Counted from the stretch's first letter, positions 1,759 to 34,591 are shown. The stretch is DNA of 64,000 bases from a virus (IMGVR_UViG_3300028887_000069:52898-116897); one strand, 5' to 3'. The notes: a model not told the origin generated them from the letters alone. A program made the numbers and translations.

Positions 1759-2073
1759 TTATTTGAATAAGTTTGAAACAGGTACAACAACCGAGTTTTC
1801 TTTGAGTTTTTTAAGTCTCATTTCTTTTATCTGTTGTTTTGAAATGAGTTTGGACTCGTAAACTGGTGTGGCTGTAGTGGAATTGCTGAGACCTGTTACC
1901 TTCATCGAATCGCTACCCGTTTTTTTAGCCATATCTACACCCTGTTTAACCGCCTCTGGAGATACGTTGCCACTATTGTCAGCAGATACCGAAACGGTTG
2001 CACCTGAATCTGCAGTCTGTATTTCATTGACAATTTCTTTGAACTGTTCCTCTGTTATCTTGAATTTTCTCAT
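1759..2073 (-). CDS. Hypothetical protein, 104 aa, with the shared N-terminal motif MRKFKITEEQFKEI
   Basis: ORF with a late-type TAAATATAA box just upstream and no SD; N-terminus matches the motif shared by five other late proteins. Confidence 0.5.
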   Translation of the reverse strand: MRKFKITEEQFKEIVNEIQTADSGATVSVSADNSGNVSPEAVKQGVDMAKKTGSDSMKVTGLSNSTTATPVYESKLISKQQIKEMRLKKLKENSVVVPVSNLFK

Positions 2074-2101
2074 TGCAATTGTTCTTTTTTATAAATATAA
2101 T

Positions 2102-2728
2102 TTATTCCTCTTTCTTTTTAAAGGTTTTTCCTGTATATGGTGAGTTTCCATATGTCCGATGTTTGACATTGGTGTCATTCATAGGTTCGTTATCATCATC
2201 AGTGAAACGATTAAACAGGTTGTCTATCCTTGCGTTCATGGACTCGTTCATTGGCTGTTGCATATCACCGCCCATGTCAGGGGCACCCATTCCTTGGTCT
2301 CCTCCATCCATCGGAGGCATTTGCATATCGGCGTTTGCATCATCACCCTGTCCATTCTCGTCATCGTTCACCTTGTTAAGGATTTCCTGAGTATCTTCAG
2401 GATTCAGTCCGTCAACACACTGTTTGACAATCATGCCTGCAACGTATTTGTTTAAGTCAGCGTCGGGCTGTGGCAGATTCTCGCTATACTTTCTCAGGCT
2501 TTGACTCAGTTTGCCTGTCAATTGCTGTATGTATTTCTTGGGGTCGCTTTCTTCGTCAGCCTCAACTCCTGCGTCAAAATTGGTGTCATATGGGTTTTGT
2601 TGTCCACCGTCCATAGGAGGCATCATATTCATATCGTTTTCACTTTCCATTCCGCCACCCATAAAAGAAGAATCCCCCATTGGAGGTGCCATAGGAGCAT
2701 CCATCATAGGAGATTCCATCCCCCCCAT
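2102..2728 (-). CDS. Met/Gly/Pro-rich acidic low-complexity protein, 208 aa
   Basis: ORF with repeated PPMDGG and MGG(M)ES segments; likely disordered. Confidence 0.4.
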   Translation of the reverse strand: MGGMESPMMDAPMAPPMGDSSFMGGGMESENDMNMMPPMDGGQQNPYDTNFDAGVEADEESDPKKYIQQLTGKLSQSLRKYSENLPQPDADLNKYVAGMIVKQCVDGLNPEDTQEILNKVNDDENGQGDDANADMQMPPMDGGDQGMGAPDMGGDMQQPMNESMNARIDNLFNRFTDDDNEPMNDTNVKHRTYGNSPYTGKTFKKKEE

Positions 2729-2757
2729 ATTGGGGACTCTTAAAACCTTGCGCTCAG

Positions 2758-4152
2758 TTAATCTTTTTTTTTAAACCTTTCCATTACAGCATCGGTGAGC
2801 ATATCGATGATTTTCTCACTGAACGGGTCACCGCTATGTCCAATCTGCGTACCGAAAGGCTGTTCACCCTTTGCAGAATCATCGTTCCAGTCACGTCCCC
2901 ATGTGTTGATTTCTCTGTTGTCAGGAGTGGTCATAGGAACTTTCTGATATGCAGGGTGTTTTCCGAAAACATCAAGTTTGTTTTCTCTGATAGGTTCAGC
3001 GTCGAACTCAGGCTCATCGTCGTCTATATCAATTTCAAATTCCCTTTCACCGTCGGTAAGCATTGTAGAATCACCATCAATAGGAAAACCCGTCTCAGGG
3101 TCGAGGTTTTCCTCATTCATTTGCTGATTGCTTTGCTTGTTAGGAAGTTTGTCATCAAACGGAGCGCTGTCACCAGGTTCAGATACATGTTGGTCCATAT
3201 TCTCGGTGTTGTGTACAACATCTTCGTTTACATCCTGATTGCTCTGCTCTTTCGGGAGTTTATCATCATAAGGTGCACTGTCACCGATTTCGGTCCCCTT
3301 AGAGGTATCCATGTAATTCAGTGCATCGTTCCATGCAAGAACCTGTGCCTCGGTCACTCTGATTGTTCTGTGTTTGGATTCGTTCATTCTAACACCGTCG
3401 TCGTTTTTGTGTGAGTTACCCTTTGCACCCGCAACAGCGACACCTTCAGATTCTACTGACTTCACATCTTTGTTGTATGTGTCATCGGCGGTTTTCGGGT
3501 CAGTGTGTTCATTGCCTTTTATTTCTTCTTTATATTCACCCTTATTGGAATAGGTACCGTCAGCCTTTTTGGGGTCTGTCTCGTTTTCTTTCATGTTGTT
3601 AACCTTGTCGGTTGACATTGGTTTCTCAACGAAAGGATTACCTTCTTCCGCATTCTTGTCGGGACTTCCGAGTTCAATAGCCATACCTTCCTTATTTTCA
3701 GAAAGGATATAAGACACGTTATTCGTGATTTGTTTAAAACGGTTGATTTCGTTTCTCATTTCACGAGTTTCGTTGATTTGCCATTCAGCATCCTTAGTTT
3801 CCTTGAAAGGGCTGATTGAAACCTTTGTGGCAGCGTTGGCCTCGTTCAGGGATTTCATTTTCAGACCGAACTGCTTGGATGCAACGGTATAGGTGTCATA
3901 TTCATGCTGTTTCTTATTCATGAAACCACCGATGTAGTCATAGTCCTCGGCAAGAACCTCGGTGTCTTTTTTGGGGGCAACCTTAATATAGAATTTGTTG
4001 TTTTCCTTTACAATACCGTATGTATTGCCGTCAGCACCAACCTGATGGTACTCGACTATTGACTGTCCGCTTTTCTTGGAACTTTCATTGAGACCGTAGT
4101 TCATAAGTTGCTTCATTCTCAAAAGTTCCTCATTGTTAATTTCGTTCGACAT
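2758..4152 (-). CDS. Repeat-containing hypothetical virion-type protein, 464 aa; start taken at the ATG at 4152 rather than the GTG at 4176
   Basis: Internal duplicated segments GDSAPYDDKLPKEQSNQ / GDSAPFDDKLPNKQSNQ and TDPKKADGTYSNK / TDPKTADDTYNKD. N-terminus MSNEINNEELLRMKQLM resembles the shared late N-terminal motif. A TAAATATAAATAT box lies 30 nt upstream. Confidence 0.5.
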   Translation of the reverse strand: MSNEINNEELLRMKQLMNYGLNESSKKSGQSIVEYHQVGADGNTYGIVKENNKFYIKVAPKKDTEVLAEDYDYIGGFMNKKQHEYDTYTVASKQFGLKMKSLNEANAATKVSISPFKETKDAEWQINETREMRNEINRFKQITNNVSYILSENKEGMAIELGSPDKNAEEGNPFVEKPMSTDKVNNMKENETDPKKADGTYSNKGEYKEEIKGNEHTDPKTADDTYNKDVKSVESEGVAVAGAKGNSHKNDDGVRMNESKHRTIRVTEAQVLAWNDALNYMDTSKGTEIGDSAPYDDKLPKEQSNQDVNEDVVHNTENMDQHVSEPGDSAPFDDKLPNKQSNQQMNEENLDPETGFPIDGDSTMLTDGEREFEIDIDDDEPEFDAEPIRENKLDVFGKHPAYQKVPMTTPDNREINTWGRDWNDDSAKGEQPFGTQIGHSGDPFSEKIIDMLTDAVMERFKKKD

Positions 4153-4182
4153 ATTACGTATGTATCTTTTTTGCACTTATTT

Positions 4183-4195
4183 TAAATATAAATAT
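4183..4195 (-). promoter_or_regulatory. Late-type upstream motif (plus-strand TAAATATAAATAT; ATATTTATATTTA on the coding strand), 30 nt 5' of the ATG
   Basis: The same 13-mer or a close variant precedes minus-strand late genes at 2093-2105, 8709-8723, 13887-13901, 25226-25238, 26681-26693, 32969-32980 and 34621-34635. Confidence 0.55.
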
Positions 4196-4204
4196 TACCT
4201 TAAA

Positions 4205-7123
4205 TTATTTTTTACTTTTCTTTTTGTTTTCGTAGACATCATCTTGCCTAAGCAACTCATCTGAAGCGACATCCATTTTAGACAACGGAGGTGTATTGTC
4301 GTCGGTGTCATCGACAGCAGGTTTATTATTTTCCACACTATCTCTCGTTACCGTATATTCACGTGGCATTTCTTTCGGCAATAAACCAAGGCTTCTCTTA
4401 ACTCTGTCAATATTTCCGAGTGCCCATTCCAAATCAGTTTTCCTGTAAACACCTGGTATTACCTGCTTAAATCCAAAACGTTTCATCGCATCATGCAAGG
4501 CTGATGTTGTCACGCTATCATTATTTAGCGCTTTACGGAATCTTCCAAGCCAAGAATTTAGATAAACATTTCCATATCCAGGATTCATCTCTTTCAATTG
4601 AGTTTCATACACAATCACAGTCTTGGATTTGTTTTCATTGACATAATTCCCCGCCGAGATTTGTGTCAAAACCTTTGAGCCACCCTTAATGAACATTGAT
4701 GCCAAGTCACCTCTGTGGTGCCACACGTCAAGGCAACGGTTCACAAGTATAAGTTTTTCACCTACAGACATTGAAGGATTATATTCGTTTAATATATTAC
4801 CCAACGGTTTCAAGCCATAGTCACTTATCGCATCTCTACCATCGGGAGCAACAGCGTAATCATCCCACCCTCGTTCATATAGAAAGTCATAACATGATTC
4901 AAAACTGTAGTCAGGTTCAATACCTTTATTTGTACACCATTGTTCATATTCATCTTCGAACACCTCCCTGAAATCATCTTCAGGAAAATAAGAAGAATGA
5001 CCTGAAATCTCAGTATTAGCTTGGAGTTGAAGACTATTTCTCATAATCAGTTCAACCCATTCGTCAACTATACGCTCAGGGAAACGCATCGCCTCTCCGT
5101 TCTGCATATAATCCTGTAACGCTCTGTTGTATTGTGACGGGTTTATCAAATTCCAATATTGTTTACTTCCCTTTGGTGCATTTTTAAAATCCATCAAAAC
5201 TGTATAAACATCGACATTTTCATAAACATCGGCTATTAAATCATCAATATAACCCTCATTTAGTTTTTCTTTTTTATTTTTAGTCATTGATTTATAGCAA
5301 GTAGCAAGAAGACCGTCACCCTCCAAATCATCATCTTTTTCTGGACACTCATAGTTATCACCATCTAAAGCATATTGGTCTAAAATTTTATCGTACACTT
5401 TAGGTAGGTTCTCTACAATTGTTTTAGCATCATCTTTCACATCGTTGTTCCAAGGGTATAAGAAATCTTCAATATTTTTATTGAGATATCCTATTTTATC
5501 TTTTATACTCTTCTCAAGCCCACTTTTGACTAAATCATCTTTCATGTACCAACCTTTTATTTTTTTAAGTAAAAGAAGTACATTTCCAAGTGCGCTATAT
5601 GCTTCACGGGTTGATTTTGCACTGTCTAATTCTTTTTTATTTACTTCCAAAACCTTTCTAGTTAATTGTGCTTTAAAATCAAGACCATCATCAGATTGTA
5701 ATGGAAGTACACCCCAAGAACCTTCATTTAAAGACATCTGTTTGTCATAGTTGTAGTTTATAATGTCCCAAATCTTCTTTATGTATCCCTCAGCCCTCAA
5801 TATTTTCCAAATGATATTACCACTGCTCATTTCCTTCGCCTTGGTCTTTAACCCCTCACGCCTCATACCTTTTAAGGTGTTGAATATTGACAACATTTTA
5901 TTTGAAAGGGTTTCCACCTTCTTGGCATCATTTTCCTTGGAAATCTGTTTTTCAAGTTTGTCTATCTTGTCAAGATATTTCTCAGCAGTCTGCTTTACAT
6001 ATTCCTTGTTCAATTTGGCATCGGACAAATCCTTCGGTTCTTTAACCCAATCATTTTTCTCGAGTGAATAGACACCGCTTGCCTCCGCAGGTGCATCCAA
6101 ATCCTCAACCGAAAGTTCAACGTTGAATCCATATATCTTAAGTTTCTCGTGGGTGGAGTTCCACTCTGTTTTCTTGGCATCGAAGAAATTCTTGACAAAG
6201 TCGGTCTTTTTGTACACTTTTTTGAAATCCATTATAATATGAATGTCAACATCCGAGTATTTTGTCCAATTGTAGTTGGCTATTGAACCCGTCAGGACAA
6301 TGTCCTCAGGTTTAACCCATCTTATATCAAGGGTCTTCACAAAGTCATCGGCAATGTCAAGCAGACGCATACGGACCTTGGAGTTGAGTTTGTTGTTCAC
6401 CCAAAACTTGGGGTGCAACTGTTCCTTGGGTTCAAACGGCTTGAGTGAAACCTCTTCCTCAATTGTTTCACTCTCATTCATCCTCCTTGCATAAAATTGG
6501 TTATATACCTCATAAGTCAAGCCCGCATCAAGGATGATAATCTGTGCGTCACCGTCACGTTCAGTTAATCCATAGGTGGATAAACGCAACATGTCTCCAA
6601 GAGGAATGTTGTAGTTTGTCATATAGTCCCATATACCTCTAAAGAACCAATTGTCGGGATGTTCCTCCATGCAATATTCGTACATTTCGTCGTCCATTGC
6701 ATAATAAAATGATTTGCGTCCATTGGGGGCATAGGCGTTGAATGTTGCCACAACAAACGATTGGAAATCATCCCAAGACAAATTAAGGACCTTTTTGAAA
6801 TCGCTTTTCTTGGCGGGCAGTACATTTTCCTCTATAATCCACTCATAGTCATCGGAAACACTTTCAACATTGACAACAATGCCATCGTTCTCCCTCGACA
6901 TTTGTGCTTCCACACGATTCTGCGCCTTTCCCTTTTCATTGATGGCAAGTTTCAAAACCAATTCGTCAGTCAGTTCAAATATGATACGTGAACTTCCCTT
7001 ACCAAAGGAAGGACCTAAATGTTCTTTACAGTATTTCAGCCTTGCAGCAAATGTTTTGCAGTTTTGAAATTCACCGAGGTTGAAATCACCGCCCAATGCT
7101 TCGTTTATAACTTTACTTTCCAT
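4205..7123 (-). CDS. Large multidomain protein, 972 aa, with a Pol-beta-type nucleotidyltransferase signature; possibly a kinase-like N-terminal domain
   Basis: Motif LTGSIANYNWTKYSDVDIHII fits hG[GS]x9-13Dh[DE]h. N-terminal FGKGSSRIIFEL...VLKLA...IILDAGL loosely resembles a kinase glycine loop, catalytic Lys and DFG-like triad. Confidence 0.5.
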   Translation of the reverse strand: MESKVINEALGGDFNLGEFQNCKTFAARLKYCKEHLGPSFGKGSSRIIFELTDELVLKLAINEKGKAQNRVEAQMSRENDGIVVNVESVSDDYEWIIEENVLPAKKSDFKKVLNLSWDDFQSFVVATFNAYAPNGRKSFYYAMDDEMYEYCMEEHPDNWFFRGIWDYMTNYNIPLGDMLRLSTYGLTERDGDAQIIILDAGLTYEVYNQFYARRMNESETIEEEVSLKPFEPKEQLHPKFWVNNKLNSKVRMRLLDIADDFVKTLDIRWVKPEDIVLTGSIANYNWTKYSDVDIHIIMDFKKVYKKTDFVKNFFDAKKTEWNSTHEKLKIYGFNVELSVEDLDAPAEASGVYSLEKNDWVKEPKDLSDAKLNKEYVKQTAEKYLDKIDKLEKQISKENDAKKVETLSNKMLSIFNTLKGMRREGLKTKAKEMSSGNIIWKILRAEGYIKKIWDIINYNYDKQMSLNEGSWGVLPLQSDDGLDFKAQLTRKVLEVNKKELDSAKSTREAYSALGNVLLLLKKIKGWYMKDDLVKSGLEKSIKDKIGYLNKNIEDFLYPWNNDVKDDAKTIVENLPKVYDKILDQYALDGDNYECPEKDDDLEGDGLLATCYKSMTKNKKEKLNEGYIDDLIADVYENVDVYTVLMDFKNAPKGSKQYWNLINPSQYNRALQDYMQNGEAMRFPERIVDEWVELIMRNSLQLQANTEISGHSSYFPEDDFREVFEDEYEQWCTNKGIEPDYSFESCYDFLYERGWDDYAVAPDGRDAISDYGLKPLGNILNEYNPSMSVGEKLILVNRCLDVWHHRGDLASMFIKGGSKVLTQISAGNYVNENKSKTVIVYETQLKEMNPGYGNVYLNSWLGRFRKALNNDSVTTSALHDAMKRFGFKQVIPGVYRKTDLEWALGNIDRVKRSLGLLPKEMPREYTVTRDSVENNKPAVDDTDDNTPPLSKMDVASDELLRQDDVYENKKKSKK

Positions 7124-7150
7124 ACAATTTAATATAATATGTTTTGACTA

Positions 7151-8689: not shown

Positions 8690-8820
8690 CCGTTATCAAT
8701 GTATATATTATAAATATACAATCATATGAATAAGGAAACCGCCACAAGTAAAGGAGGTGGTTCGACTCTGACAGCTTCCTCGCAATCTTGGGCGGTCTTA
8801 TTATTAAATATCATGCAACA

Positions 8821-8853: not shown

Positions 8854-8879
8854 TTCTGTATTATAATAATATCTTGATA

Positions 8880-10077: not shown

Positions 10078-11011
10078 GCGTATATTCGGCTTTGCAGGAA
10101 GAATGCGAAGCGGAAAGGGAAGTCTCTCAAACGCCGTGAAGGAGAATTTCGACGGTGAAATAATAACCGTTGCCGACGCATTGAAAAGGCTTGTCATAGA
10201 AATGATTCCCAATGTATGCTCCAACATCATGGAACTTAATGCTGTGAAAAACAGAGGTGATGTCTTGGACTGCGGCATAAGCGATAAGGATATAAAACTT
10301 ATTTCCGACAACACCTCCGTTCCATATGAGGATGTTGAGCGTGAATGCAAGGATAAGAAACAGTGGGTTGACGTCAGGGACATGCTGCAGTTCATAGGAA
10401 CCAACATAATACGCAAGTACAATCCTGATTGGCATGTGGAAAAACTCATATCCAATATACAGAACAGTTCCAAGGATACTGTATGTGTTGACGACGTGCG
10501 TTTCCCTAATGAAAGACAGGCAATCGAGAAATTTGGCGGTACGGTATTCTTTGTCATCAGACCCCAAAGCGAGATATTGACAAACCACCCTGCCGAAACA
10601 TCACTTGTGTGGCAGAATTTCCTCAACAAAAGGATTATCATCAACGACAGCAGTGAAAACGTTCTACAGGAAAATTTCGTACAGGCGGTGAAAGACGATT
10701 TCAGATGGCAGTCGGAAAACAGGATATTCCTTTCAGCCAATGAAAACTATTTCTCGGATAATGTGAGTTTCGGGTATGAGCATCGCAACGAAAACCTTCA
10801 TCTCATGTATGAGTTGATTAAGGAAAACAAAGACCAACCGCTTTTCCAAAAACACGGTATAATAACTTATGATGCCGATAATGCAACCGACGCAAACAGG
10901 TTTGTCATGCGTGTGCAGAAACACTCAAAGGAAATATACCATTGCGGTCACAGATTTGTCTTCTACAACCCGTTGATATTTGAAAATCTGAAAATACACT
11001 TAACTACTTGA
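10049..11011 (+). CDS. P-loop NTPase, phage dNMP-kinase-like, 320 aa
   Basis: N-terminal RIFGFAGRMRSGKGS P-loop resembles phage deoxynucleoside-monophosphate kinases. Confidence 0.4.
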   Translation: MELSNPTTNKRIFGFAGRMRSGKGSLSNAVKENFDGEIITVADALKRLVIEMIPNVCSNIMELNAVKNRGDVLDCGISDKDIKLISDNTSVPYEDVERECKDKKQWVDVRDMLQFIGTNIIRKYNPDWHVEKLISNIQNSSKDTVCVDDVRFPNERQAIEKFGGTVFFVIRPQSEILTNHPAETSLVWQNFLNKRIIINDSSENVLQENFVQAVKDDFRWQSENRIFLSANENYFSDNVSFGYEHRNENLHLMYELIKENKDQPLFQKHGIITYDADNATDANRFVMRVQKHSKEIYHCGHRFVFYNPLIFENLKIHLTT

Positions 11012-11384
11012 TATAGTTTACGGACAGCATTCCGTCACGACTTATCTTGTTGTCCAACCAATCGTCAACAACCTGCTTGATGAACTTTTTCCTGTCATCA
11101 TCATCCTTGATATTCGAGGCGAATTTGGAATCAAGTTTTGAAAGCAGTTTTTCCACACTTATGGTTTGAAGCGGTTGCCCTGAAACACTCAGCACCTGTA
11201 CCGCATTCTTCTCCACAACATCACCGTTCTCGTCTATGTCGTCATATTTAGCCTTGGCAAAATGTTTGTCAAGGTATCTCTTTATTGCCGACACCAAATG
11301 TATGTTTATGACAAATGCCTCGGTCAGTGCATTCTCATACGCTTCCCTTAACTGATTTTCCGTTATGTAGACAACCTTACTCAT
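11004..11384 (-). CDS. Hypothetical protein, 126 aa, with shared N-terminal motif MSKVVYITENQLREAYE
   Basis: ORF translationally coupled (ATGA overlap) to the upstream Clp ATPase gene. Confidence 0.45.
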   Translation of the reverse strand: MSKVVYITENQLREAYENALTEAFVINIHLVSAIKRYLDKHFAKAKYDDIDENGDVVEKNAVQVLSVSGQPLQTISVEKLLSKLDSKFASNIKDDDDRKKFIKQVVDDWLDNKISRDGMLSVNYIK

Positions 11385-13864
11385 TTATCACTGCTTTCAT
11401 TATAAATATCTGAATATTTGATTTTGTATCCTTTCTTAGGTGTATTCTCCAAAAGGTAGTCAGTCAACTTGTCCTCCAATTGGCGACGCAATTCCCTGAG
11501 TATCGGTCTTGCACCGTATTCAGACTCTTTCTTGACCTCCTTGAAGATATTCTTCGGAAGTTCGCCCTCAAAGATTGACTCATCAAAAGCATAGCCGAGT
11601 TTTTTTACACGTTCCTCGATTTTCCCTATCTCTATCTTTATGATGGTCTTGAGGTTATCGTCAGTCAGTTTGTTCATGAACATTATCTCGTCAATCCTGT
11701 TTATGAACTCGGGTGGAAGTTTTTTCTTGATTGTGGACAATATAATGTCCCTATCCCTTACATCCTCGTTTTTGTCGCCAAAACCAATCAAAGGTTTCTT
11801 GTTGGCGGCTTCCTTTGTCCCGATATTGGATGTCATCAATATGATAACGTTCCTGAAATCAACGGTGTTTCCCTTGTTGTCTGTCAGTCTTCCCTCGTCG
11901 AATACCTGAAGGAACGTATTGTATATCTCCTCATTGGCTTTCTCTATCTCGTCAAGCAGAAGCACACAGTGGTTGTTTTTCTTTATTGCCTCAGTCAACA
12001 GACCACCCTCATCATAACCGACGTAGCCCGCCGAACTTCCTATCAGTTTGTTCACACTGATTTTGTCAGCATACTCACTCATGTCAAGCCTGACCATGTT
12101 CTTCTCACTACCGAAAACCTCCTCGGCGACTTTCTTTGCCAAGAAAGTCTTTCCGCATCCGCTTGTTCCTGACATCAGGCATACCACAGGCTTGTCGGGA
12201 TTGCCTAATCCAACCCTCTGCCGTCTGACCGCCTTGCACAGAATCTCAACCGCCTCATCCTGTCCGATAACCTTTTCCTTAAGACGACTGTCAATGTTCT
12301 TAAGTTTCTCGAGTTCGGTCTTGCCAATCTCGCCCACAGGGATGTCTGTTTTCTTTGATACGCATTCGTACAGTGACTTGAGCGTTACAGGCAGAGGTTT
12401 CTTTTCACTCAACATCTTCTTCTCATAAAGGTTTATCTCGCTCTTCTTCTTGACCTCGTCGGCACAGAGTTCGTCGTACTTTTCATACGATTCCGAATCC
12501 GACTTTGTCTTGATTTCATCTATCTTGTTCTGTATCTCTATCAGTTCAGATACGAGTTTGTCAAGATTATCGTCGTTTTTGACCTTCATCAACTCAGTGG
12601 CCGCTGCAGTGTCAAGTATGTCACTTACGGTATAGATATCAGCATTGCCGAAGAAACGTTGCGACAGGTTTATTGCGGTGGTTATCACATCGTCGGAATA
12701 TGTCACAAAGTGGTATTTCTCATACTTGGCGGCAACCTTCTTTATGATGTCGAATTTGTCTTTCCCATCCTTGTCAGTCAAGACAATCTTCTCAAAACGC
12801 CTTACAAGGTTTTTGTTTGGCTCAATGTATTTCGAATAGTTGTCATGCGTTGTGGTACATATGAACATTATGTTCTTGTTGTTCAGTATGTCCTCCAACA
12901 TGACGTCAGTTGCAACCTCAGTGAATTTGCTGTTTGGCGAAAGGATTGAGTTTATGTCGTCAATGAAAAAAATGTACCTGCCGCTTTTGGCTGCGGTTTC
13001 GATGATGTTTTGGTACTTTGACTCGAAACCACCCCTGAAGCCCGTGCCCGATGTCAACGATATGAAATCCATCTTCATGAGTTTCTTGTCCTTGAAATAC
13101 TTGGGCACGTCACCGTCCACAATCATGTTGGCGATGTGCTGCACAGTACAGGTCTTTCCGCAACCCGACTCTCCCACCACTATCACGTTGTTCTTGTCTC
13201 TTTTCAATAGTGCGGTGAAAATTTTGTCAATGATTTCACCGTTTCCGATTGCCTTGTCCAACTTGCCGCTGATTGCCATCTTGTTCAAGTCAATCAGGTT
13301 TTTCTCAACATCGGTGTTTTCGGGGTATTTCCCACTTGCGGGTTGTGTCTTGGGTGTATTCTCGGTTTCCTTTTTCTGTTTGCTTTTGGGCTTGCGTTTC
13401 TCCTTCGTCTGTGTATCGGCAACGGTGTCGGCATTTTCAGCAATGGTGCTTTCCATCACACTTTCAATCTGTGAGGTTGTTATTCCGTATTTCTTGAAAA
13501 CCTTATACGAGTTCTCGTCAAGCAGTAACAGAATGTCCAGAAACAGGCAGGAATTTATCACGTCACCTTTCTCGTTGCATTTCTCAAGAACCTCGTCGTA
13601 TATCTTATCGTATTTCGGTTCTGCACCTGACATCGGGGTTGTGTTTGAGAGTTCGGTATAACAGTCGTTTTCCAGACTGTTCAGGCTTTCGGTGAAAAAA
13701 AGTTTCTCCAACGCCTTGTAAGCAAGACAGTCTTTATTGGAGAGAACTGAATATATGTAATAATATGAACTTATCTTCTCGGTGGGAAACTGCGACACAA
13801 GGTCTTTCTTTATATAGTTGAATACAACCTTTGCCTCGTTTGTGAACGTATATTTTTCTGCCAT
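11381..13864 (-). CDS. Clp-family double-AAA+ ATPase (ClpB/ClpC-like), 827 aa
   Basis: Clp_N-like N-domain; D1 Walker A GESGCGKT; coiled-coil linker; D2 VIGQDEAVEIL...GTSGCGKT. Confidence 0.75.
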   Translation of the reverse strand: MAEKYTFTNEAKVVFNYIKKDLVSQFPTEKISSYYYIYSVLSNKDCLAYKALEKLFFTESLNSLENDCYTELSNTTPMSGAEPKYDKIYDEVLEKCNEKGDVINSCLFLDILLLLDENSYKVFKKYGITTSQIESVMESTIAENADTVADTQTKEKRKPKSKQKKETENTPKTQPASGKYPENTDVEKNLIDLNKMAISGKLDKAIGNGEIIDKIFTALLKRDKNNVIVVGESGCGKTCTVQHIANMIVDGDVPKYFKDKKLMKMDFISLTSGTGFRGGFESKYQNIIETAAKSGRYIFFIDDINSILSPNSKFTEVATDVMLEDILNNKNIMFICTTTHDNYSKYIEPNKNLVRRFEKIVLTDKDGKDKFDIIKKVAAKYEKYHFVTYSDDVITTAINLSQRFFGNADIYTVSDILDTAAATELMKVKNDDNLDKLVSELIEIQNKIDEIKTKSDSESYEKYDELCADEVKKKSEINLYEKKMLSEKKPLPVTLKSLYECVSKKTDIPVGEIGKTELEKLKNIDSRLKEKVIGQDEAVEILCKAVRRQRVGLGNPDKPVVCLMSGTSGCGKTFLAKKVAEEVFGSEKNMVRLDMSEYADKISVNKLIGSSAGYVGYDEGGLLTEAIKKNNHCVLLLDEIEKANEEIYNTFLQVFDEGRLTDNKGNTVDFRNVIILMTSNIGTKEAANKKPLIGFGDKNEDVRDRDIILSTIKKKLPPEFINRIDEIMFMNKLTDDNLKTIIKIEIGKIEERVKKLGYAFDESIFEGELPKNIFKEVKKESEYGARPILRELRRQLEDKLTDYLLENTPKKGYKIKYSDIYNESSDK

Positions 13865-15879: not shown

Positions 15880-16071
15880 ACCTATTCAAAAGTAGTCAAA
15901 AGTGTCTAAAACTAACTCGTATAAATATATTGTAGTTTGACACTATTTATATAATGGAAACTGAAGCAGAGAGCAGTTCCAAAATAACAGTAAAGATATA
16001 TAGAGGTTTTATCCTTGTCGGTTCTCTCTGCAACTATAACCGCAAGTTTAATACCTCTTTTTTATTGGAAT

Positions 16072-17712
16072 ATGGTCATAGACAGCAAATACACGAAAAT
16101 TTTCAAATCAAACGGACTGACACGTCAAAAATATGACGAGTTGGTTGGGTTCGCTCTTATGCTGCGTGACCACAAGAACCTTGTTTCCGAATATGTCAAC
16201 TCCAATCTTGAACACTACCTTGAATACAGCAAACTTGACTTCTTGAAGGAAATGCGCGCAACATACAAGGATGCCATTCCAAGTTCGTTTGATGTTCAGT
16301 TATACACTCAAGTGTTCAACTGTTACCAGAACAAGTTTGAGGCAATCCGCAAGCACCTTGACTTTGAAGTCGTGAGATTTGTTGGTTTTGAGTTCTACAA
16401 GCGTGACACCAAAAAGAACAAGAAAGGCGACTTGAAAAAGGTTGTGACAGAAAAGTCAAAAACACCTCTAACAATATGTCTAACATACCTTGCAAGGTAC
16501 GGAAACGAGAACACGCTTGACTATATCGCCAAGCAGTTGGAGACCTGCGATGAAAAGAAACGTGAGTTTTACAACAACATACTGCGTTGTTGTGAGAAAT
16601 TCGGTTTTGAACGTCTGTTTGAACTCGCTTTGCGTAAACGTAACAGAATCATAAAACGGTATTCTGAATATCCGATTGAGTTCAAGTCCTTGTCATTCGG
16701 GGGAAGGTGCAGAAAAACAAGAATCATTGACTACAACAAGAAGTTCGGTTCAGTCATCAACTCCTTTGTCAGTCTGTCGGGAATCGGAAGAAAGTCGTTT
16801 GATATTCCCGTTAAGTTTAACAAGGATTGGCACGGCAGTATGAGAGACTACAGCAAAACAAATCCCGACTATGAGTATGTGCTTACGTTCAACGAAAAAT
16901 ACCATCAAGTGAACATCAACTTGTGCAAGGACGGAGAGAGGTATATACCAGAAGCGGGTGACAATGTTGTTGGTATTGACGTTAATTGCAAGCACAACTT
17001 GTTCAGTCTTTCAAACGAGACAACTTATGATTACAATCGACAACTTGTGAAGGATTTCTGCAAACTGTCGTTGGTGGTTGACGAACTGAAGAAGGACAAG
17101 AACTACACCATCGGCAAGCGCAAGCAGCAGAAACTTGACACCTTGAAGATGAAGATGCTGAAATCCGAGCAACAACTCATTTCAGGTATGTGCAAGGAAC
17201 TGATGATGGATGGTGTGAACCACATCGTTATGGAAGACCTTGACAACGGTTTTGGAAGGTGCTACGTCAAGGACAAGGACAACGAGGATATAAACTACAA
17301 CAGAAAGGTCAAGTTTCTTGGTTTAAGTTCATTAAAACAAGAGGTTGAACACATAGCAAGGAAGTACGGAATCGCATTGTCAACCGTACAAGCGAGTTAC
17401 ACAAGCAAAATGTGTCCGATTTGCGGTTGCATTGCCGATGAGAACAGACCAAATCAAGAAACATTCGAGTGTATTGAGTGTGGACACGAAGATAACGCCG
17501 ACGTGAATGCGGCGATTAATATAAGGAATAGAGTGGCTGTAACCGTGTTGCAGCAGAAACTCTTAAAACAACGCGATAACAAATCCTTTGAACCTAAACG
17601 TCTCAAGCGCGAGAAAGTGAAAGAGATATTGTTATCGTTCCGAAGAGACTTGCTGAAAAATGCAGGTAGTGAATGTAATAAAAGTATGATGAATACTTTT
17701 GATTATGTTTAA
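16072..17712 (+). CDS. TnpB/Cas12f-like RuvC nuclease with C-terminal zinc finger, 547 aa from the first ATG
   Basis: RuvC-I VVGIDVNCKHNLF; RuvC-II HIVMEDLDNG; zinc finger plus RuvC-III CPICGCIADENRPNQETFECIECGHEDNADVNAAINIRNR. The catalytic D/E/D appear intact. Confidence 0.7.
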   Translation: MVIDSKYTKIFKSNGLTRQKYDELVGFALMLRDHKNLVSEYVNSNLEHYLEYSKLDFLKEMRATYKDAIPSSFDVQLYTQVFNCYQNKFEAIRKHLDFEVVRFVGFEFYKRDTKKNKKGDLKKVVTEKSKTPLTICLTYLARYGNENTLDYIAKQLETCDEKKREFYNNILRCCEKFGFERLFELALRKRNRIIKRYSEYPIEFKSLSFGGRCRKTRIIDYNKKFGSVINSFVSLSGIGRKSFDIPVKFNKDWHGSMRDYSKTNPDYEYVLTFNEKYHQVNINLCKDGERYIPEAGDNVVGIDVNCKHNLFSLSNETTYDYNRQLVKDFCKLSLVVDELKKDKNYTIGKRKQQKLDTLKMKMLKSEQQLISGMCKELMMDGVNHIVMEDLDNGFGRCYVKDKDNEDINYNRKVKFLGLSSLKQEVEHIARKYGIALSTVQASYTSKMCPICGCIADENRPNQETFECIECGHEDNADVNAAINIRNRVAVTVLQQKLLKQRDNKSFEPKRLKREKVKEILLSFRRDLLKNAGSECNKSMMNTFDYV

Positions 17713-17804: not shown

Positions 17805-18821
17805 ATGAAAGGTCCAATGTTTTTTAGCGACAAGGCACCCGTATTTAAAAACCGTGCCTTGGAGATTTGGTTGCGGGACATACAGAAATACAAGGTACTG
17901 TCCGTGCAAGAGGAAGAGGATGTGATACGCAGGTACAAGGAAGGGGACCGTTCTGCTTTGGACATACTAATCCAGAGCAACCAACGGTTTGTGTACAAAA
18001 TGGCGAAAACGTTTTCCAAGGATGCCGACACGATACTTGAATTGATATCGGAAGGCAACTTGGCGTTATTCGACGCAATTGACAGGTTCGACCTCACAAG
18101 AGGATACAAGTTCATGTCATACGCCGTATGGTTCATAAAGCGCAATATGCTTGAATATTTTTACCATAACGGTTTGGTAAACCATTACGTCTCCCGAGAC
18201 ATAATGTGCAGGGCAAACCGTATCAAACATAAATGGTTCCAGGAAAACGGGTATGACATACCGTTGGATATACTCAGGGATAAGGTTAACGAAGAACAGC
18301 CAATGCGGACTGTCCGTGACAAGATGTTCTTTGCCGACATAACCATCAAGTACGACGGTGACTACTGTGAGACCAACGAAGCCGAGGAATGCAGCCTGAT
18401 AAACACGGTTCGACCATCCATGAACAAATGCGAGGAGATTTTCGAGCGTGAGGATGAAATGAAGCGGGTCGAGTATTATCTTGACGCTGTCTGCAACAAT
18501 GACGCCGAGAAAAACATAATGATTGACAAATACGGACTGTTCGGGAACGAGCAGTTGGGTGAGGCAAGCCTATGTATGAAATATGGAATCGAAGCGTGGT
18601 ATATAGGTTATCTCAACCTTAAGATAATGAGGGCTATGAATCAGTTCGCCAAGACAGGAACCGTTCCAAAGAAACGCAAGACAAAGGTCGGTTCAAGGAT
18701 TGAAGAAAACCTTAAAGCCGGAAAGAAAGGTGTTTCCGTTTCCGCAAAAGCCCAAGTGAGTGTAAAGAAGAAAGAAAAAACCACTCCAAAACGTAAAACA
18801 AAATCGGCTTGTGGCTCTTAA
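17805..18821 (+). CDS. Sigma-70-family factor with a lysine-rich C-terminal tail
   Basis: Region 2 ALDILIQSNQRFVYKMAKTF...GNLALFDAIDRFDLTRGYKFMSYAVWFIKRNM; a region-4-like HTH; KKRKTK...KKKEKTTPKRKTKS tail. A TAatTTTG promoter lies upstream. Confidence 0.7.
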   Translation: MKGPMFFSDKAPVFKNRALEIWLRDIQKYKVLSVQEEEDVIRRYKEGDRSALDILIQSNQRFVYKMAKTFSKDADTILELISEGNLALFDAIDRFDLTRGYKFMSYAVWFIKRNMLEYFYHNGLVNHYVSRDIMCRANRIKHKWFQENGYDIPLDILRDKVNEEQPMRTVRDKMFFADITIKYDGDYCETNEAEECSLINTVRPSMNKCEEIFEREDEMKRVEYYLDAVCNNDAEKNIMIDKYGLFGNEQLGEASLCMKYGIEAWYIGYLNLKIMRAMNQFAKTGTVPKKRKTKVGSRIEENLKAGKKGVSVSAKAQVSVKKKEKTTPKRKTKSACGS

Positions 18822-18989
18822 TATCCCTGTCGTTCAGGATATGTGACAAAATCTCTTTATGGTCTCTGATTGGTAAGGTGTAGGCGTTTTCAATTGTTAC
18901 CTTACCTTTTTCAATCTTATAGGTGATGAGTCTCATATACCATAAATATCCAGAAAAAGTCTTTAATCTTTTTTATTAAAAAAGTACGT

Positions 18990-20018
18990 ATGATTAAAAG
19001 CATAACATTTACAGGAGAAAGAGGGTACATCGGAGAACGATGGACTGAAAAAGACAAACCTGCCAAACCCAAGAAAACTGATTGTCGGTACAGGAAATAT
19101 TCGTTCGAAACCCACCGTGATGTGGTTGACGACGAGAAATTCAATGACGACATGGAACGGTATAAGGAAGAAATGAAGACATACCGAAAGGTTAAGAATC
19201 AATACAAAGTATCCTGTTCCGAAATCCTTGTCGGTCGCAAGTTCGAATTCGCATCAGACAAAATAAACCTTATCTTCGGTCCAAATGCCTCGGGCAAGAC
19301 CACAATCATCAAGGGAATTGCGGCACATGCTTTCTGCAAGGACGGCTTTTCCTCATTTGTCAGACCGATTGATTTCCGCATTGGGTTTGGCGAAAAACGG
19401 GCACCTGAGAAATATACCGCAGAATTACTAAACTTAATAGGCAACACCTCAAGCGTGGTGGAGTGGGACGGAAGCCCGATTTATTTCCATAATTTCGACA
19501 ATCGCCCGAACTATGGGTCCATCGGCGACTTGCAGGGTTCGATTATCGAGAATACGGCCGAAGAGCTAATGTATATTATGGATAAAAACCAACAGTCGGC
19601 AGGACAGACCATGTTCTATCAGTTCCACAAACTCGCGGGCATGATGTCAAGGAACGTGACCTACGACGATTTGCTGAACAAGCCATACGGGAAATACGGC
19701 AAATCGGATAAGGACAACCCGTGGCGCTTGGCATATGACGCACAGGAAGCATACTACAGGTCGTTCCCGATGGCATACAACCCAAACGGACAGAACACCT
19801 ACCTCTTCGATGAAATCGACAAGTCGATGGACATACTGAACATACATGCACTCTATGCAAGCATATTGCCAGGCATGATGAAAAAGTACAACAAACAAAT
19901 CATAATCATATCACACTCCCCGATAGTGCTAAGTGATGAAGTTTATAACTCCGACAAGTACAACTTCATCTCGATGGATGAGGAATACACAGAGAAATGT
20001 AGGAAAATTTTATCATAA
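18990..20018 (+). CDS. ABC-type (AAA_21-like) ATPase, 342 aa
   Basis: Walker A IFGPNASGKTT; signature-like QSAGQ; Walker B YLFDEID; H-loop IIIISHSP. Confidence 0.6.
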   Translation: MIKSITFTGERGYIGERWTEKDKPAKPKKTDCRYRKYSFETHRDVVDDEKFNDDMERYKEEMKTYRKVKNQYKVSCSEILVGRKFEFASDKINLIFGPNASGKTTIIKGIAAHAFCKDGFSSFVRPIDFRIGFGEKRAPEKYTAELLNLIGNTSSVVEWDGSPIYFHNFDNRPNYGSIGDLQGSIIENTAEELMYIMDKNQQSAGQTMFYQFHKLAGMMSRNVTYDDLLNKPYGKYGKSDKDNPWRLAYDAQEAYYRSFPMAYNPNGQNTYLFDEIDKSMDILNIHALYASILPGMMKKYNKQIIIISHSPIVLSDEVYNSDKYNFISMDEEYTEKCRKILS

Positions 20019-20025
20019 AAAACAT

Positions 20026-31515: not shown

Positions 31516-31519
31516 AACC

Positions 31520-31560
31520 AACGCAAATATACTAAAAAAATCCCGTATCGCTACGGGATT
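31520..31560 (-). promoter_or_regulatory. Middle-type promoter on the minus strand, immediately 5' of ligA; near-leaderless
   Basis: Reverse complement reads tttttttagTAtaTTTGcgttggttATG. Confidence 0.5.
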
Positions 31561-31575
31561 CTGTATTTTTTCCTC
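31530..31575 (-). terminator. Terminator after the SPFH gene on the minus strand
   Basis: aatcccgta-tcgc-tacgggatt with a T-tract on the minus strand. Confidence 0.5.
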
Positions 31576-31583
31576 AATCTTTT

Positions 31584-32375
31584 TTATTTTCCGAAATTGA
31601 TGAACGGCACACTGTTGCCCATCATATAGGTCGGTAATTGTCCAGACCATTTTTGGACAGCTTCGTATTCCACAAGTTTCTGATTGCGTTCCAATGCAGT
31701 CGCCTTGATTCTCATAGCCTCAGCCTCGGCTTCCGCCTTAATCTTGGTCTGCTTGGCCTGTTCCTCAACCTGTATGGTAACGTTCTTAGCCTTCAACGCA
31801 TTCTGCTCGGCGACCTGCTTCTCCTTGATTGCGGTCTCGAACGCATCGTCAAAGTCTATCTCGGTAATCTGGAATTGGATATTGATGAAATAGTTGCTGT
31901 CCAACACCTGACGCAATCCACTCTCGATGTCACGGCGAACGTTATCCCTGTTCGCCACAATCTCCGTGGCGGCATAGTCACCGAATATGTCCTTCATCGT
32001 GCTTCTGATAAACGGCACCACAATCCTGTTATGGTAATCCTCGCCAACGTTCTTCATAAGGTCGGCAACATTCTCCTTCACAAGGTCATAGTTGATAGTG
32101 TAGTCCACAACCGCAGTCTGCACATCCTTCGTGTAGGAGTTCTCCTGTCCGTCGAACTTCTTCTGCTGCACGTTCACCTTCTTTATCGTCTGCACGAACG
32201 GAATCTTAAGATGCGGTCCGTCAGGAATCGACGACTCGTGGATTTTGCCGAAAGTACTCAGCACCCCACGCTGTGTCGACTTGACAGTGTAGAACGAACA
32301 GGCAATGATGATGATTGCCAAAACACCGGCTACCGAAAGCCAGATAATCTCTTTCATGGTAAATGTCTTTTTCAT
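31584..32375 (-). CDS. SPFH/band-7 (prohibitin/HflC-like) membrane protein
   Basis: N-terminal TM segment followed by an SPFH-like core and an Ala/Glu-rich coiled coil. Confidence 0.7.
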   Translation of the reverse strand: MKKTFTMKEIIWLSVAGVLAIIIIACSFYTVKSTQRGVLSTFGKIHESSIPDGPHLKIPFVQTIKKVNVQQKKFDGQENSYTKDVQTAVVDYTINYDLVKENVADLMKNVGEDYHNRIVVPFIRSTMKDIFGDYAATEIVANRDNVRRDIESGLRQVLDSNYFINIQFQITEIDFDDAFETAIKEKQVAEQNALKAKNVTIQVEEQAKQTKIKAEAEAEAMRIKATALERNQKLVEYEAVQKWSGQLPTYMMGNSVPFINFGK

Positions 32376-32406
32376 GTTTCCAAATTTTTTAATTAATACT
32401 ATATTT

Positions 32407-32781
32407 TCATTTTCCTATATTCCAAACCAACCTGTATCCATACTCCTCACAATACTTCTCCAACACACCTCTGTAAAACTTCAACCCTTCCTCAGTGAAC
32501 TCCGATACGGGGAAGTCAAGACTCGACCCATATACAAGCAACACCTTTTCCGCACTGTTACCGCCATATAAGGTGTAGAACGCACCAAACGGCATCTGCC
32601 TCTTTGTGGTTGTCAATTCCATCGCCCTCTCAAAGTCCATCTCGGGATTATGCATGACCATGAAAAGCCCGCTGTGCGAATTGCACTTGTTCTCCTTGTT
32701 GTAGAAATACAACTCGCCGCCTCCTCCCTTCAGGGGAAAAATGATGAATCTGTAACAGGTAATCTCGGGTGTTGTTATCAT
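32407..32781 (-). CDS. Hypothetical protein, 124 aa
   Basis: ORF only. Confidence 0.4.
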   Translation of the reverse strand: MITTPEITCYRFIIFPLKGGGGELYFYNKENKCNSHSGLFMVMHNPEMDFERAMELTTTKRQMPFGAFYTLYGGNSAEKVLLVYGSSLDFPVSEFTEEGLKFYRGVLEKYCEEYGYRLVWNIGK

Positions 32782-32936
32782 ATTTGCCTTAACATTTCGT
32801 CAACCTGCTTCAACTTGCGCTTGGTCCTCCTAAGTTTCTTCTTGTCTTCCTTTATTTGAACCTCAGTGTCATGCTTCTCGGTCAACAGTTCCTTTTTGAC
32901 ACTCCTTAGTTTCTTCTTCATGTTGTCGTCTTCCAT
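32778..32936 (-). CDS. Small basic coiled-coil protein, 52 aa (manual call)
   Basis: ATGA overlap with the downstream gene; a late-type box lies upstream. Confidence 0.25.
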   Translation of the reverse strand: MEDDNMKKKLRSVKKELLTEKHDTEVQIKEDKKKLRRTKRKLKQVDEMLRQI

Positions 32937-33072
32937 ATCGCTTTACAGTTAAGACATATTATTTCCCTTAACTATAAATATCCGACAACCTGTCTTCGGA
33001 GTTTCTTTCACATTTGCAAAGGTAATGCCTTTTTCCGAATGGACCAAATCTTTTTTGTTAAAGAATGTTAAT

Positions 33073-33426
33073 TCACTCGTATATGTAGTCGATTATCCGC
33101 CTGAACGCCTCGGCATCATCCCCATCCAATTCCCATGGACGCTTGCCCACACTCAATATGTCGGGCATCTCTACATCCTTCGTGACGAACGCCACCACAT
33201 AGCACGACTCGGGATTCTTGAAACAACTCTCATGCACACAGAACCCAATATCCTCACCCTTCCCGTAATAGGTCTCCCCAACCTTCTCAAACTCCTCCTC
33301 TTTCCCGTAATAAGGATTCTTTTCCCATTTCACTATCTCTGCGGCATACCCACCGTTATACCCCATCCCCTCATGGATGACCTTCAACTCGACGTCACCG
33401 AACCTGAACCTTTTCAACTCTTTCAT
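33073..33426 (-). CDS. Hypothetical protein, 117 aa
   Basis: ORF only. Confidence 0.4.
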   Translation of the reverse strand: MKELKRFRFGDVELKVIHEGMGYNGGYAAEIVKWEKNPYYGKEEEFEKVGETYYGKGEDIGFCVHESCFKNPESCYVVAFVTKDVEMPDILSVGKRPWELDGDDAEAFRRIIDYIYE

Positions 33427-33549
33427 GACTTATCCATTTTTACGGTAAAACTCATTATACCATTTCTCGGCAACTTTCTTTTCAATAATCTGTTTAATTT
33501 CTTTCTCCATATGTCTTTTATGTTTGTTTTTGCATCACAAATATACTAT

Positions 33550-33590
33550 AAAAAAACAAAAAAAGCGGGTCTCCGAAAAAAAACCCGCCT
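33550..33590 (-). terminator. Terminator on the minus strand
   Basis: gcgggt...acccgc hairpin followed by a T-run on the minus strand. Confidence 0.5.
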
Positions 33591-33619
33591 TTCATACTAT
33601 GGGAAAAACTAAAACATCC

Positions 33620-34057
33620 TCATTTCTGCTTCTTCACTATCCTGAAGTTCTTCTCCGCACCCTTAGGCTCTATCAACTGCAGACGGTACTCACCGCACTG
33701 ATAACTCGACATGTCAACGTAACCGACACCACCGTTGATGTAGTTCTTCGTCACAGCCTGGTCATTGGCGTCATACAGATAGTAGGTTATACCCGATACA
33801 CTGCCGACACTGACCTTAACCTTGTCGGTACGACCCTCCTGCTTCACGGTGGCCGCATTGTCCATAACAGTCACGTTCGCAATGCTCATCTCGGTGACTG
33901 TGTAACTGTAGGTCTTCACGGCAGTACCGCATATGCGGTCACCCCTCTGAACAGACACCCTGCTGTTGTTGCTGACAGACACCTGCCTCACGGGACGCTG
34001 CCCCATCACCACGCACACGGCGCAGACGAATAAAACAATACTTAAGATTTTCTTCAT
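33620..34057 (-). CDS. Secreted beta-rich protein, 145 aa
   Basis: Signal peptide MKKILSIVLFVCAVCVVMGQ. Confidence 0.45.
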   Translation of the reverse strand: MKKILSIVLFVCAVCVVMGQRPVRQVSVSNNSRVSVQRGDRICGTAVKTYSYTVTEMSIANVTVMDNAATVKQEGRTDKVKVSVGSVSGITYYLYDANDQAVTKNYINGGVGYVDMSSYQCGEYRLQLIEPKGAEKNFRIVKKQK

Positions 34058-34156
34058 AACTCTTCCTTTGTTTTTTACCTTATTATTATTCTCTACCCTT
34101 TAGTGCATCTTATAAGCAATTTATTTTACTTTCACCTGACTGTAAATGGACAATTA

Positions 34157-34591
34157 CTATAGGTCACCGTACGGAATGCATCTCCAATCAAAGTTTTCGT
34201 CGTGAAAGTCGGCTCTTTCATCATCTGTCATGTTTTTGGTAGCCTCATCATCCATGTCCTCCCATTTGCGGGCTATGTTCTGAGCCTGCTTGTGTTTTCT
34301 GTTAAAGAATGTGTATAGGGTGTCAAACGCATCAAACGCCTTCATCATTATCTTGCTGTCAGAGCTATAGCCACCACCACATCTATTCCCACCTTCGTTC
34401 CACCAACCACCTGTTTGAAATGCATTGAGGGCTTCCTCAATTACACGCAACGCATCCTGCACCTCTTCGAAGTTATCCAACCTATCCGCACGATAATAGG
34501 CATGCGACATCGTCTTGTAATCTATCTCGTCAATGACTTCCCTTATCAACCCCTTCAACTCACGCTCGTTCAACTTTATTGTCCGTTTCAT
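34157..34591 (-). CDS. Hypothetical protein, 144 aa, with shared N-terminal motif MKRTIKLNERELKGLI
   Basis: A late-type box lies upstream; no SD. Confidence 0.45.
   Translation of the reverse strand: MKRTIKLNERELKGLIREVIDEIDYKTMSHAYYRADRLDNFEEVQDALRVIEEALNAFQTGGWWNEGGNRCGGGYSSDSKIMMKAFDAFDTLYTFFNRKHKQAQNIARKWEDMDDEATKNMTDDERADFHDENFDWRCIPYGDL

Follow-up and report, generated by a model that had tools for sequence, protein, structure and literature searches.

The capsid targeting sequence (CTS) of the internal proteins of phage T4 was reportedly described by Mullaney and Black in 1996. Propeptides of this kind, which are N-terminal and between 10 and 19 residues long, are found on the internal proteins IPI-III, on Alt and on gp24; they bind the core, are removed by gp21 after a Glu and have been proposed as an evolutionary route for loading varied proteins (PMC9026906, PMC5694885, PMC9958956). 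The CTS of IPII and IPIII reads MKTYQEFIAE (PMC8442874). Residues 8 and 10 of the T4 CTS (I-x-E) govern processing and the logo of gp21 itself includes LIE-9 (PMC9026906), while all gp21-family proteases studied cut after Glu (PMC5694885). The localization of proteins to the T4 scaffolding core ‘remains mysterious’, and the CTS of about 10 residues is conserved only in IPII and IPIII (PMC9958956). In this study we analyzed a stretch of viral DNA of 64,000 nucleotides (nt) (IMGVR_UViG_3300028887_000069:52898-116897; the window), in which five minus-strand genes encode proteins that begin with a common peptide, hereafter the tag. This tag exists, is modular and conserved, and is a feature of late-class genes. 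Judged by analogy with T4, it is probably a prohead (capsid) targeting tag, which would make it a functional analogue of the T4 CTS with a different sequence and about twice the length.

A preliminary description of the window had reported one N-terminal peptide on six late proteins. All six minus-strand open reading frames (ORFs) are present with the N-termini quoted there, and five of them share a real motif (Table 1), while the sixth, gene 2758-4152, is untagged. When the core pattern [ILV][TNS]E[ENSQRAD][EQ][LFI][KR] was run on the full six-frame translation of the window, seven matches were obtained, five of which lie at most 7 residues from the Met of a long minus-strand ORF. We also took the N-termini of 58 metagenomic orthologues of the tagged protein of 474 amino acids (aa) and built from them a 21-column hidden Markov model (HMM), with the other window proteins excluded from training. 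In the six-frame translation this HMM ranks the other four N-termini directly under the 474-aa protein, with scores between 8.2 and 22.7 bits, and the highest-scoring unrelated ORF of the window reaches 2.6 bits. The N-terminus of 2758-4152 (MSNEINNEELL...) obtains no tag score, and an internal RTIRVTEAQVL in this protein scores −0.1 bits, which is noise. Identity across the five window tags is 0.57, 0.67 and 0.38 at codon positions 1, 2 and 3, respectively; the third positions being the least conserved, selection acts on the peptide and not on a DNA or RNA repeat element.

The untagged 2758-4152 product is a distant paralogue of the capsid-adjacent scaffold-like protein encoded at 18716-20110 of locus L021 (BLASTP E=1e-5 over about 100 residues). 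Both proteins are 464 aa long, and both genes are preceded by the late box described below.

The tag is frequent beyond the window. In 1.66 Mb of DNA from the same phage clade there are 151 tag matches that score 10 bits or more, and reversed or shuffled decoys give none; a Met lies within 12 residues upstream in 142 of the matches (94%). These matches define 123 distinct tagged proteins of 25 to 836 aa, whose bodies represent at least 78 unrelated families. A search with a 26-column profile (A3) against 1.84 billion representative proteins gave 178 matches at E<=0.001; among the matches listed, the tag starts at residue 1-4 in 116 of the 131 strong-match representatives. We thus found a short N-terminal peptide common to unrelated late proteins of one phage, as in the functional class of the T4-type CTS.

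Conservation in related phages, which the preliminary description had named as a check, was observed in the orthologues of three window proteins. Besides the 474-aa protein, discussed below, these are w159, which retains the tag in six orthologues down to 46% identity, and w104, whose orthologues in L024, L027 and L038 (tblastn) keep both the tag and the gene order w104-w373-TerL-portal. In addition, L057 and L065 have tagged 104-aa genes at the w104 position in the same order. For w126, one tagged relative is encoded in L013 (12122-12544). A search for homologues of w144 among 5.8 billion proteins returned only the protein itself, on a contig of 364,702 bp, and the tag therefore also sits on an orphan.

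The logo of 127 non-redundant tags reads M-K-(K/R)-(T/V)-I-(R/K)-L-T-E-S-(D/Q)-L-(R/H/K)-x-(I/L/M)-(V/I)-K-E-x-(I/V)-(N/K)-E-(I/V)-L-x-E, with an invariant Glu at position 9, and conservation ends after about residues 22-26. The hydrophobic residues alternate at first (I-x-L, strand-like) and then recur every three to four residues, as in an amphipathic helix; the mean hydrophobic moment of the tags is 0.41 versus 0.23 in shuffles. An AlphaFold2 model of the 474-aa protein, run on an alignment of 60 sequences, has a body with a mean predicted local distance difference test (pLDDT) score of 90.6, and residues 1-20 score between 54 and 66. In this model the tag is detached from the body and forms a lone helix at residues 8-17, with a break at 18-20 and the body beginning at residue 24. 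The tag is thus a short beta-strand (I-x-L) followed by an N-capped amphipathic helix that is flexibly joined to the protein body. The corresponding model of w159 has a pLDDT of 41 and is uninformative.

Motifs of the type cut by gp21 are present in the tag. All tags have (L/I)-(T/N)-E at residues 7-9, and a further [IL]-x-E, whose Glu occupies a position between +13 and +21 relative to the anchor Leu, occurs in 72% of 114 tags, as opposed to 12-14% of control windows in the same proteins. At residues 20-23, the last three residues are I-D-E, I-N-E, L-T-E or L-N-E in four of the five window tags, and E23 is invariant in the 474-aa family (60 orthologues), so that a hydrophobic-x-Glu motif stands at the end of the peptide as judged from sequence. 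Ahead of internal copies of the tag, [IL]-x-E-type sites were found in 36% versus 23% of controls, an enrichment that we did not use. The capsid protein of the clade has a conserved H-L-(I/L)-x-E-A at residues 56-61, where x varies between fixed flanks; this position corresponds to the cut site of T4 gp23 (FLTE|A).

The window starts within the large terminase gene of a head module that continues beyond its left edge. There, in the 21-kb locus L021 that was found by a look-up via gene 624-1745, the order in the same orientation is Terminase_6N, Portal_T4, 310-aa and 142-aa unknowns (p310 and p142) and Peptidase_S77, followed by proteins of 96 and 252 aa (p96 and p252), an acidic 464-aa scaffold-like protein and a Gp23-type major capsid protein. 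Peptidase_S77 is the family of the T4 prohead protease gp21 and is encoded directly past the left edge. The Pfam matches to Portal_T4, Peptidase_S77 and Gp23 on the source contig thus identify a T4-type prohead with a gp21-family protease. In L021 (16700-17473) the called start of this protease is probably 16 codons early, with a late box at 16722-16730, 18 nt upstream of Met17. Among the head-module proteins p96, p252 and the scaffold-like protein of the source phage, no tag was found above noise.

IMG/VR contains 184 relatives of the capsid protein, whose contigs are up to 412 kb long. We fetched 80 loci from these and mapped head genes and tags on 36 full-length ones; contigs with the tagged 474-aa enzyme are among the capsid-relative loci, for example 3300032007_000003 (412 kb). 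The synteny of the head genes holds across 31 relatives. At least one tagged gene stands between the portal and capsid genes in 18 of the 31 loci that have both, mostly in the interval from p310/p142 to the protease or in that from the protease to the scaffold-like gene. T4 keeps its prohead-core genes 67 and 68 at the corresponding portal-capsid position. Among 56 tags on the same strand, 32 fall 3-7 kb upstream of the capsid gene (binomial p=9e-8). The inserted tagged genes encode between 78 and 605 aa and vary in length and sequence from phage to phage, and this part of the operon is therefore a hyperplastic cargo region. In a 372-kb relative (L027 10001-13237) the portal match falls into two parts with about 1.1 kb between them, which suggests an intein, an intron or a homing-endonuclease insertion.

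Tagged genes and head genes also share an upstream element. The late box ATATTTATA occurs nine times in the window, always on the minus strand, where 0.5 occurrences are expected, and the upstream box that had been noticed in the preliminary description is thereby borne out. It lies 16-34 nt upstream of the ATG in four tagged genes, while 34157-34591 has a copy with one mismatch. In the 21-kb stretch of L021 it occurs ten times, all in gene orientation, against 0.24 expected, and it precedes the portal, p310, protease, p252, scaffold-like and capsid genes. Being common to head genes and tagged genes, it is a genuine late promoter element. A Shine-Dalgarno sequence is missing from the tagged genes and is strong in the early genes.

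A prohead targeting tag would work through the following steps. The tagged genes would be transcribed from the late promoter that they have in common with the head genes, and the tag would dock each protein to the scaffolding core while the T4-type prohead is being assembled. The gp21-family Peptidase_S77 may then cut after the Glu of (I/L)-x-E, both at residues 7-9 and at the end of the tag (about residues 20-26), and the cargo thus freed inside the head may exit with the DNA at infection. In T4, processing is blocked when position 10 of the CTS is an Asp. We infer all of docking, cleavage, retention in the virion and ejection. The analogy with the T4 CTS, which the preliminary description had already drawn, gains from the S77 protease module, the common late box, the position in head operons, the conservation in orthologues and the (I/L)-x-E sites; it loses from the one untagged protein of the six, the weak phosphoribosyltransferase (PRTase) assignment discussed below and the internal or second tag copies.

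Several further observations weigh against a targeting function. No tagged gene stands between the portal and the capsid gene in the source phage itself, and four of the five tagged window genes have genes of replication and metabolism as neighbors instead of lying in the head operon. Nor is the tag confined to N-termini: among 120 orthologues of the 474-aa protein, 23 have it internally, where it immediately precedes the body, and many proteins of the tagged library have a second internal or C-terminal copy. The (I/L)-x-E motifs at +11, +15 and +19 follow the periodicity of the amphipathic helix; they are therefore compatible with cleavage and no independent evidence of it. Aligned with the T4 CTS MKTYQEFIAE, the tag has only the M-K start and (I/L)-x-E in common, and it is therefore an analogue and not a homologue. 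Finally, no cultured member of the clade was found: neither the PRTase-like gene nor any tagged family turned up in 50,697 GenBank phage records.

It is unlikely, in our judgement, that the tag is a general strand-helix unit for docking or oligomerization that assembles late proteins without any relation to the capsid interior. Its amphipathic, heptad-like pattern (with the hydrophobic moment given above) agrees with such a role, which would also explain the tandem, internal and C-terminal second copies and the internal site before the body in the 23 orthologues. It leaves unexplained, however, why 94% of the matches are N-terminal, why tagged genes are concentrated in head operons and why they are restricted to late-box genes, and it gives no reason for at least 78 unrelated families, orphans included, to share one oligomerization unit. 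We consider it improbable that the tag is a recognition signal for the phage AAA+ protein, serving unfolding, remodelling or timed degradation. Clp-family unfoldases do read N-terminal motifs, the AAA+ gene has a late-type box and a stop codon overlapping the start of tagged w126, and its homologues occur near the tagged enzyme in three other loci. This is an argument from adjacency, with co-occurrence known from three loci only; the location of tagged genes in head operons is not accounted for, and internal and C-terminal copies fit an N-degron poorly. The gene in question (11381-13864, minus strand) encodes an 827-aa ClpB/ClpA-like protein with a double AAA+ module (AAA, AAA_2, ClpB_D2-small; phrog_4871) and has homologues in L004, L005 and L013.

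The tag might also be half of a ribbon-helix-helix (RHH)-like element, whose basic strand and helix would bind DNA or RNA when paired, but this is highly improbable. By eye, K-K-x-I-R-L-T-E-S-x-L-x-x-(I/L) resembles the strand-helix-1 signature of CopG/Arc-type proteins, one library member weakly matched a RelB-like antitoxin family, and one was named ‘predicted transcriptional regulator’ by the Joint Genome Institute (JGI). Against this stand the lack of any RHH Pfam match for the tagged proteins, conservation that ends after one helix, an AlphaFold model with a single helix, and a profile search of the PDB that gave only calmodulin-type ‘LTEEQ’ helix caps (E>0.05). On the basis of this search both the RHH-like and the calmodulin-like resemblance were rejected as generic helix capping. 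To the idea that the similarity is a by-product of the A-rich, Lys/Glu-rich starts of genes without a Shine-Dalgarno sequence, or mere chance, we give next to no credence. Tagged and early genes do differ in their Shine-Dalgarno sequences and ‘LTEEQL’-type helix caps are common in proteins generally, but the decoys gave zero matches, other late-box genes without a Shine-Dalgarno sequence have no tag, third codon positions vary most and the tag is retained in distant orthologues. Such an origin is effectively refuted by the HMM ranking, the decoys and the codon-position identity.

The source phage, roughly 365 kb in size, belongs to a clade of uncultured T4-like gut and rumen phages of 200-400 kb. 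The window derives from a phage of a rumen or gut metagenome, and the 474-aa protein was located on a 95-kb contig in JGI sample 3300031993. The GenBank phages include no close relative of the 14-kb region, the 474-aa protein, the tag consensus or any tagged family member, and no prior description of the tag motif was found in the searchable literature. Scans of IMG/VR with one protein at a time, the 474-aa or the 144-aa one, returned nothing, while an alignment query did find relatives. The helicase is 37% identical to that of Bacteroides DAC phages, and the first 50 kb of DAC16 contain no tag. The cultured T4-like Flavobacterium phage immuto_2-6A (L116, NC_055915) agrees in its head-module synteny but has no tag either. 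Immediately upstream of the terminase of this phage (5706-7006), two adjacent genes, PduO-like and 99-aa, share another N-terminal peptide containing L-T/V-E (MADNFNLRSFLTENKLTKNAQLLKE and MENFDLKKFLVENKLTTNSKILKE), which may be a lineage-specific targeting sequence.

The 474-aa enzyme has 481 metagenomic homologues, on contigs of up to 402 kb. The PRTase domain proposed for it in the preliminary description is tentative: a phosphoribosyl pyrophosphate (PRPP)-loop-like motif, VIFDDNVSGGATL, is visible and invariant in the orthologues, but the protein has no Pfam match and no PDB sequence match, and Foldseek returned only weak local, non-significant matches of the model to the PRTases OPRT, HGPRT and ComF. 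In some relatives cREC_REC or InPase domains are inserted between tag and body, and in others they precede the tag, which then becomes internal and stands directly before the body. Among 120 orthologues the tag is N-terminal in 63, internal in 23, both in one and below threshold in 33, most of which carry a shifted variant such as MKLTIEDIKYIV.

Proteins with two tags occur in the library among P0124-P0271 (e.g., P0135, P0147, P0191, P0126, P0144 and P0178). The second copies are in tandem near the N-terminus, internal, or at most 12 residues from the C-terminus (22% of second copies). In a recurrent family the tag is followed by ELDWKTYANAAKK, and w144 (DEIDYKTMSHAYYRA) resembles a distant member of it. 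Two adjacent genes in L003 (8987-9970 and 9995-11386) share about the first 22 residues, MNRIIKITE(D/E)xYxYYVNGEDVL, and then diverge completely. As they are alike only in these residues, the pair is evidence for duplication or shuffling of the tag onto a new body.

Pfam and PHROGs searches with the five tagged window proteins gave nothing meaningful; sub-threshold matches to XkdX and phrog_134 reflect only an ‘ITEEQ(F/Y)KEI’ helix cap. In the clade as a whole, the cargo comprises the enzyme with the PRPP-loop-like motif and its fused InPase or cREC domains, Pol-beta-type nucleotidyltransferases, a Tae4 amidase, phosphatases and a large number of small orphans, basic or acidic. InPase, cREC, the nucleotidyltransferase and the amidase are of a sort known from conflict systems, and the cargo types would suit effectors of counter-defence or takeover like T4 Alt or IPI. 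The cREC domain has been assigned to NAD/cyclic-nucleotide conflict systems (PMC7824862). The PHROG names ‘minor head protein / DarB-like / virion structural / endolysin’ on tagged library proteins are not strong support and give only a weak hint, since they all derive from the InPase domain of one protein. A 972-aa late protein of the window with a Pol-beta-type nucleotidyltransferase domain (4205-7123, minus strand) is untagged; homologous or related domains occur in tagged proteins of L038 (13777-15141), L005 (16043-18418) and L102 (960-2546).

A broader reading, to which we give slightly less than an even chance, is that the tag is a universal, portable address label for the whole packaged and probably ejected cargo of this clade of 200-400 kb T4-like Bacteroidota phages, amounting to dozens of unrelated effectors per genome. 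These effectors would include NAD- and nucleotide-directed enzymes, and the internal copies would mark polyprotein-like cargo that is cut by the prohead protease. If this is true, an injected counter-defence arsenal could be taken straight from metagenomes. Should the tag work as a targeting signal, a rule based on sequence would predict, without culture, the proteins that uncultured huge phages bring into their hosts, many of which could be anti-defence effectors. The at least 78 cargo families would be a natural set for studying recognition by the prohead core, and the tag would be a second, longer targeting peptide for engineered protein delivery by phage capsids. The analysis also identified a large clade of gut and rumen phages that have a T4-type head and are predicted to carry an unusually rich set of internal proteins.

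The features of the window are collected in Table 1. Its right part (35800-64000, plus strand) contains about 60 small ORFs, nearly all with a promoter of the Bacteroidota type, ttaCCTTTGcaaacgtaa (TAnnTTTG), and the Shine-Dalgarno sequence AAAGGAG. Given such promoters and strong Shine-Dalgarno sequences, this block is presumably early and the host presumably belongs to the Bacteroidota. Early and late genes thus differ both in promoter and in the style of translation initiation. The late box may be read by the product of a sigma-factor-like gene that has a host-type promoter. The plus strand also encodes a TnpB/Cas12f1-like transposon-associated nuclease (16015-17712; phrog_12300/506; Pfam Cas12f1-like_TNB).

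Table 1. Tagged genes, their upstream elements and selected neighbors in the window (positions from the first nucleotide of the window; bits are scores of the HMM trained on the 474-aa family; pI, isoelectric point).
Feature	Position	Strand	Remarks
Large terminase, first 198 codons	1..595	-	head module continues beyond left edge
w373	624..1745	-	conserved untagged gene between w104 and terminase
w104, tagged 104-aa basic protein	1759..2073	-	pI 9.4; two genes upstream of terminase, position conserved
w104 tag-coding segment	2005..2073	-	MRKFKITEEQFKEIVNEIQTADS; 22.7 bits with the HMM trained on another family
Late box of w104	2090..2098	-	ATATTTATA, 16 nt upstream
Untagged acidic 464-aa protein	2758..4152	-	sixth protein of the preliminary description; late box 4187-4195
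w126, tagged 126-aa protein	11004..11384	-	ATG overlaps stop of ClpB-like gene (ATGA)
w126 tag-coding segment	11319..11384	-	MSKVVYITENQLREAYENALTE; 13.1 bits; ends L-T-E
Late box of w126	11401..11409	-	ATATTTATA, 16 nt upstream, within 3' end of ClpB-like gene
Sigma-factor-like gene	17805..18821	+	phrog_351, Sigma70_r2; host-type promoter
Tagged 474-aa enzyme	23774..25198	-	PRPP-loop-like motif; fused to cREC_REC and/or InPase in relatives
474-aa enzyme tag-coding segment	25130..25198	-	MRTFKITEEQLKYYTEAQDLLNE
Two overlapping late boxes of 474-aa gene	25224..25238	-	ATATTTATA, 25-31 nt upstream
w159, tagged 159-aa basic protein	26171..26650	-	pI 9.4; predicted all-helical
w159 tag-coding segment	26585..26650	-	MKQTVRLNENELKELIMCAINE; 8.2 bits
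Late box of w159	26685..26693	-	ATATTTATA, 34 nt upstream
w144, tagged 144-aa acidic orphan	34157..34591	-	
w144 tag-coding segment	34526..34591	-	MKRTIKLNERELKGLIREVIDE; 14.8 bits; ends I-D-E
Late box of w144	34625..34633	-	CTATTTATA, one mismatch, 33 nt upstream

Compared with T4, the likeness lies in a short N-terminal peptide on unrelated, fast-evolving and non-essential-looking late proteins, in the presence of (I/L)-x-E as a gp21-type cleavage motif, and in a phage with a T4-type portal, scaffold, gp23 capsid protein and gp21-family protease. Enzymes are moreover among the cargo in both cases, T4 Alt being an ADP-ribosyltransferase. The tag differs in its 22-26 residues with a long conserved amphipathic helix, as opposed to about 10 residues in the T4 CTS, in its occurrence on at least 78 families instead of a handful, and in that it may be internal, duplicated or C-terminal. 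Unlike T4, the tag-bearing phages are uncultured and have genomes of 200-400 kb and, presumably, a Bacteroidota host, and the function of the tag is a predicted one.

A comparable arrangement is found in the encapsulation peptides of bacterial microcompartments and the cargo-loading peptides of encapsulins, in which a short terminal amphipathic helix with a linker sends unrelated enzymes into the lumen of a shell. Encapsulin shells have the HK97 fold, as do phage capsids. In the present case the prohead would serve as the shell, and a protease would probably cut the tag off; general scans of part of the window proteins, which included no search aimed at shell genes, turned up none for a microcompartment or an encapsulin. 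The polyvalent proteins reportedly described by Iyer et al. in 2017 contain InPase and other conflict-type enzyme domains and are believed to enter the host with the DNA. They have the InPase domain in common with the 474-aa family, in which it is fused to the tagged enzymes; polyvalent proteins are giant multidomain chains with no known common tag, whereas the proteins described here are mostly separate and small, each with a tag of its own. The giant phages phiKZ, 201phi2-1 and SPN3US, which have virion RNA polymerases, are of a different clade; their propeptides are mostly longer than 100 residues, have no single consensus and, unlike the tag, show the cleavage motif (A/S/G)-x-E (PMC5694885, PMC10052503). 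As proposed here for the tagged proteins, however, many head-internal proteins of a giant phage are processed after Glu by a gp21-related protease, and the giant-phage paralogues gp53 and gp54 have an identical N-terminus of 15 residues that was thought to be CTS-like (PMC5694885, PMC10052503).

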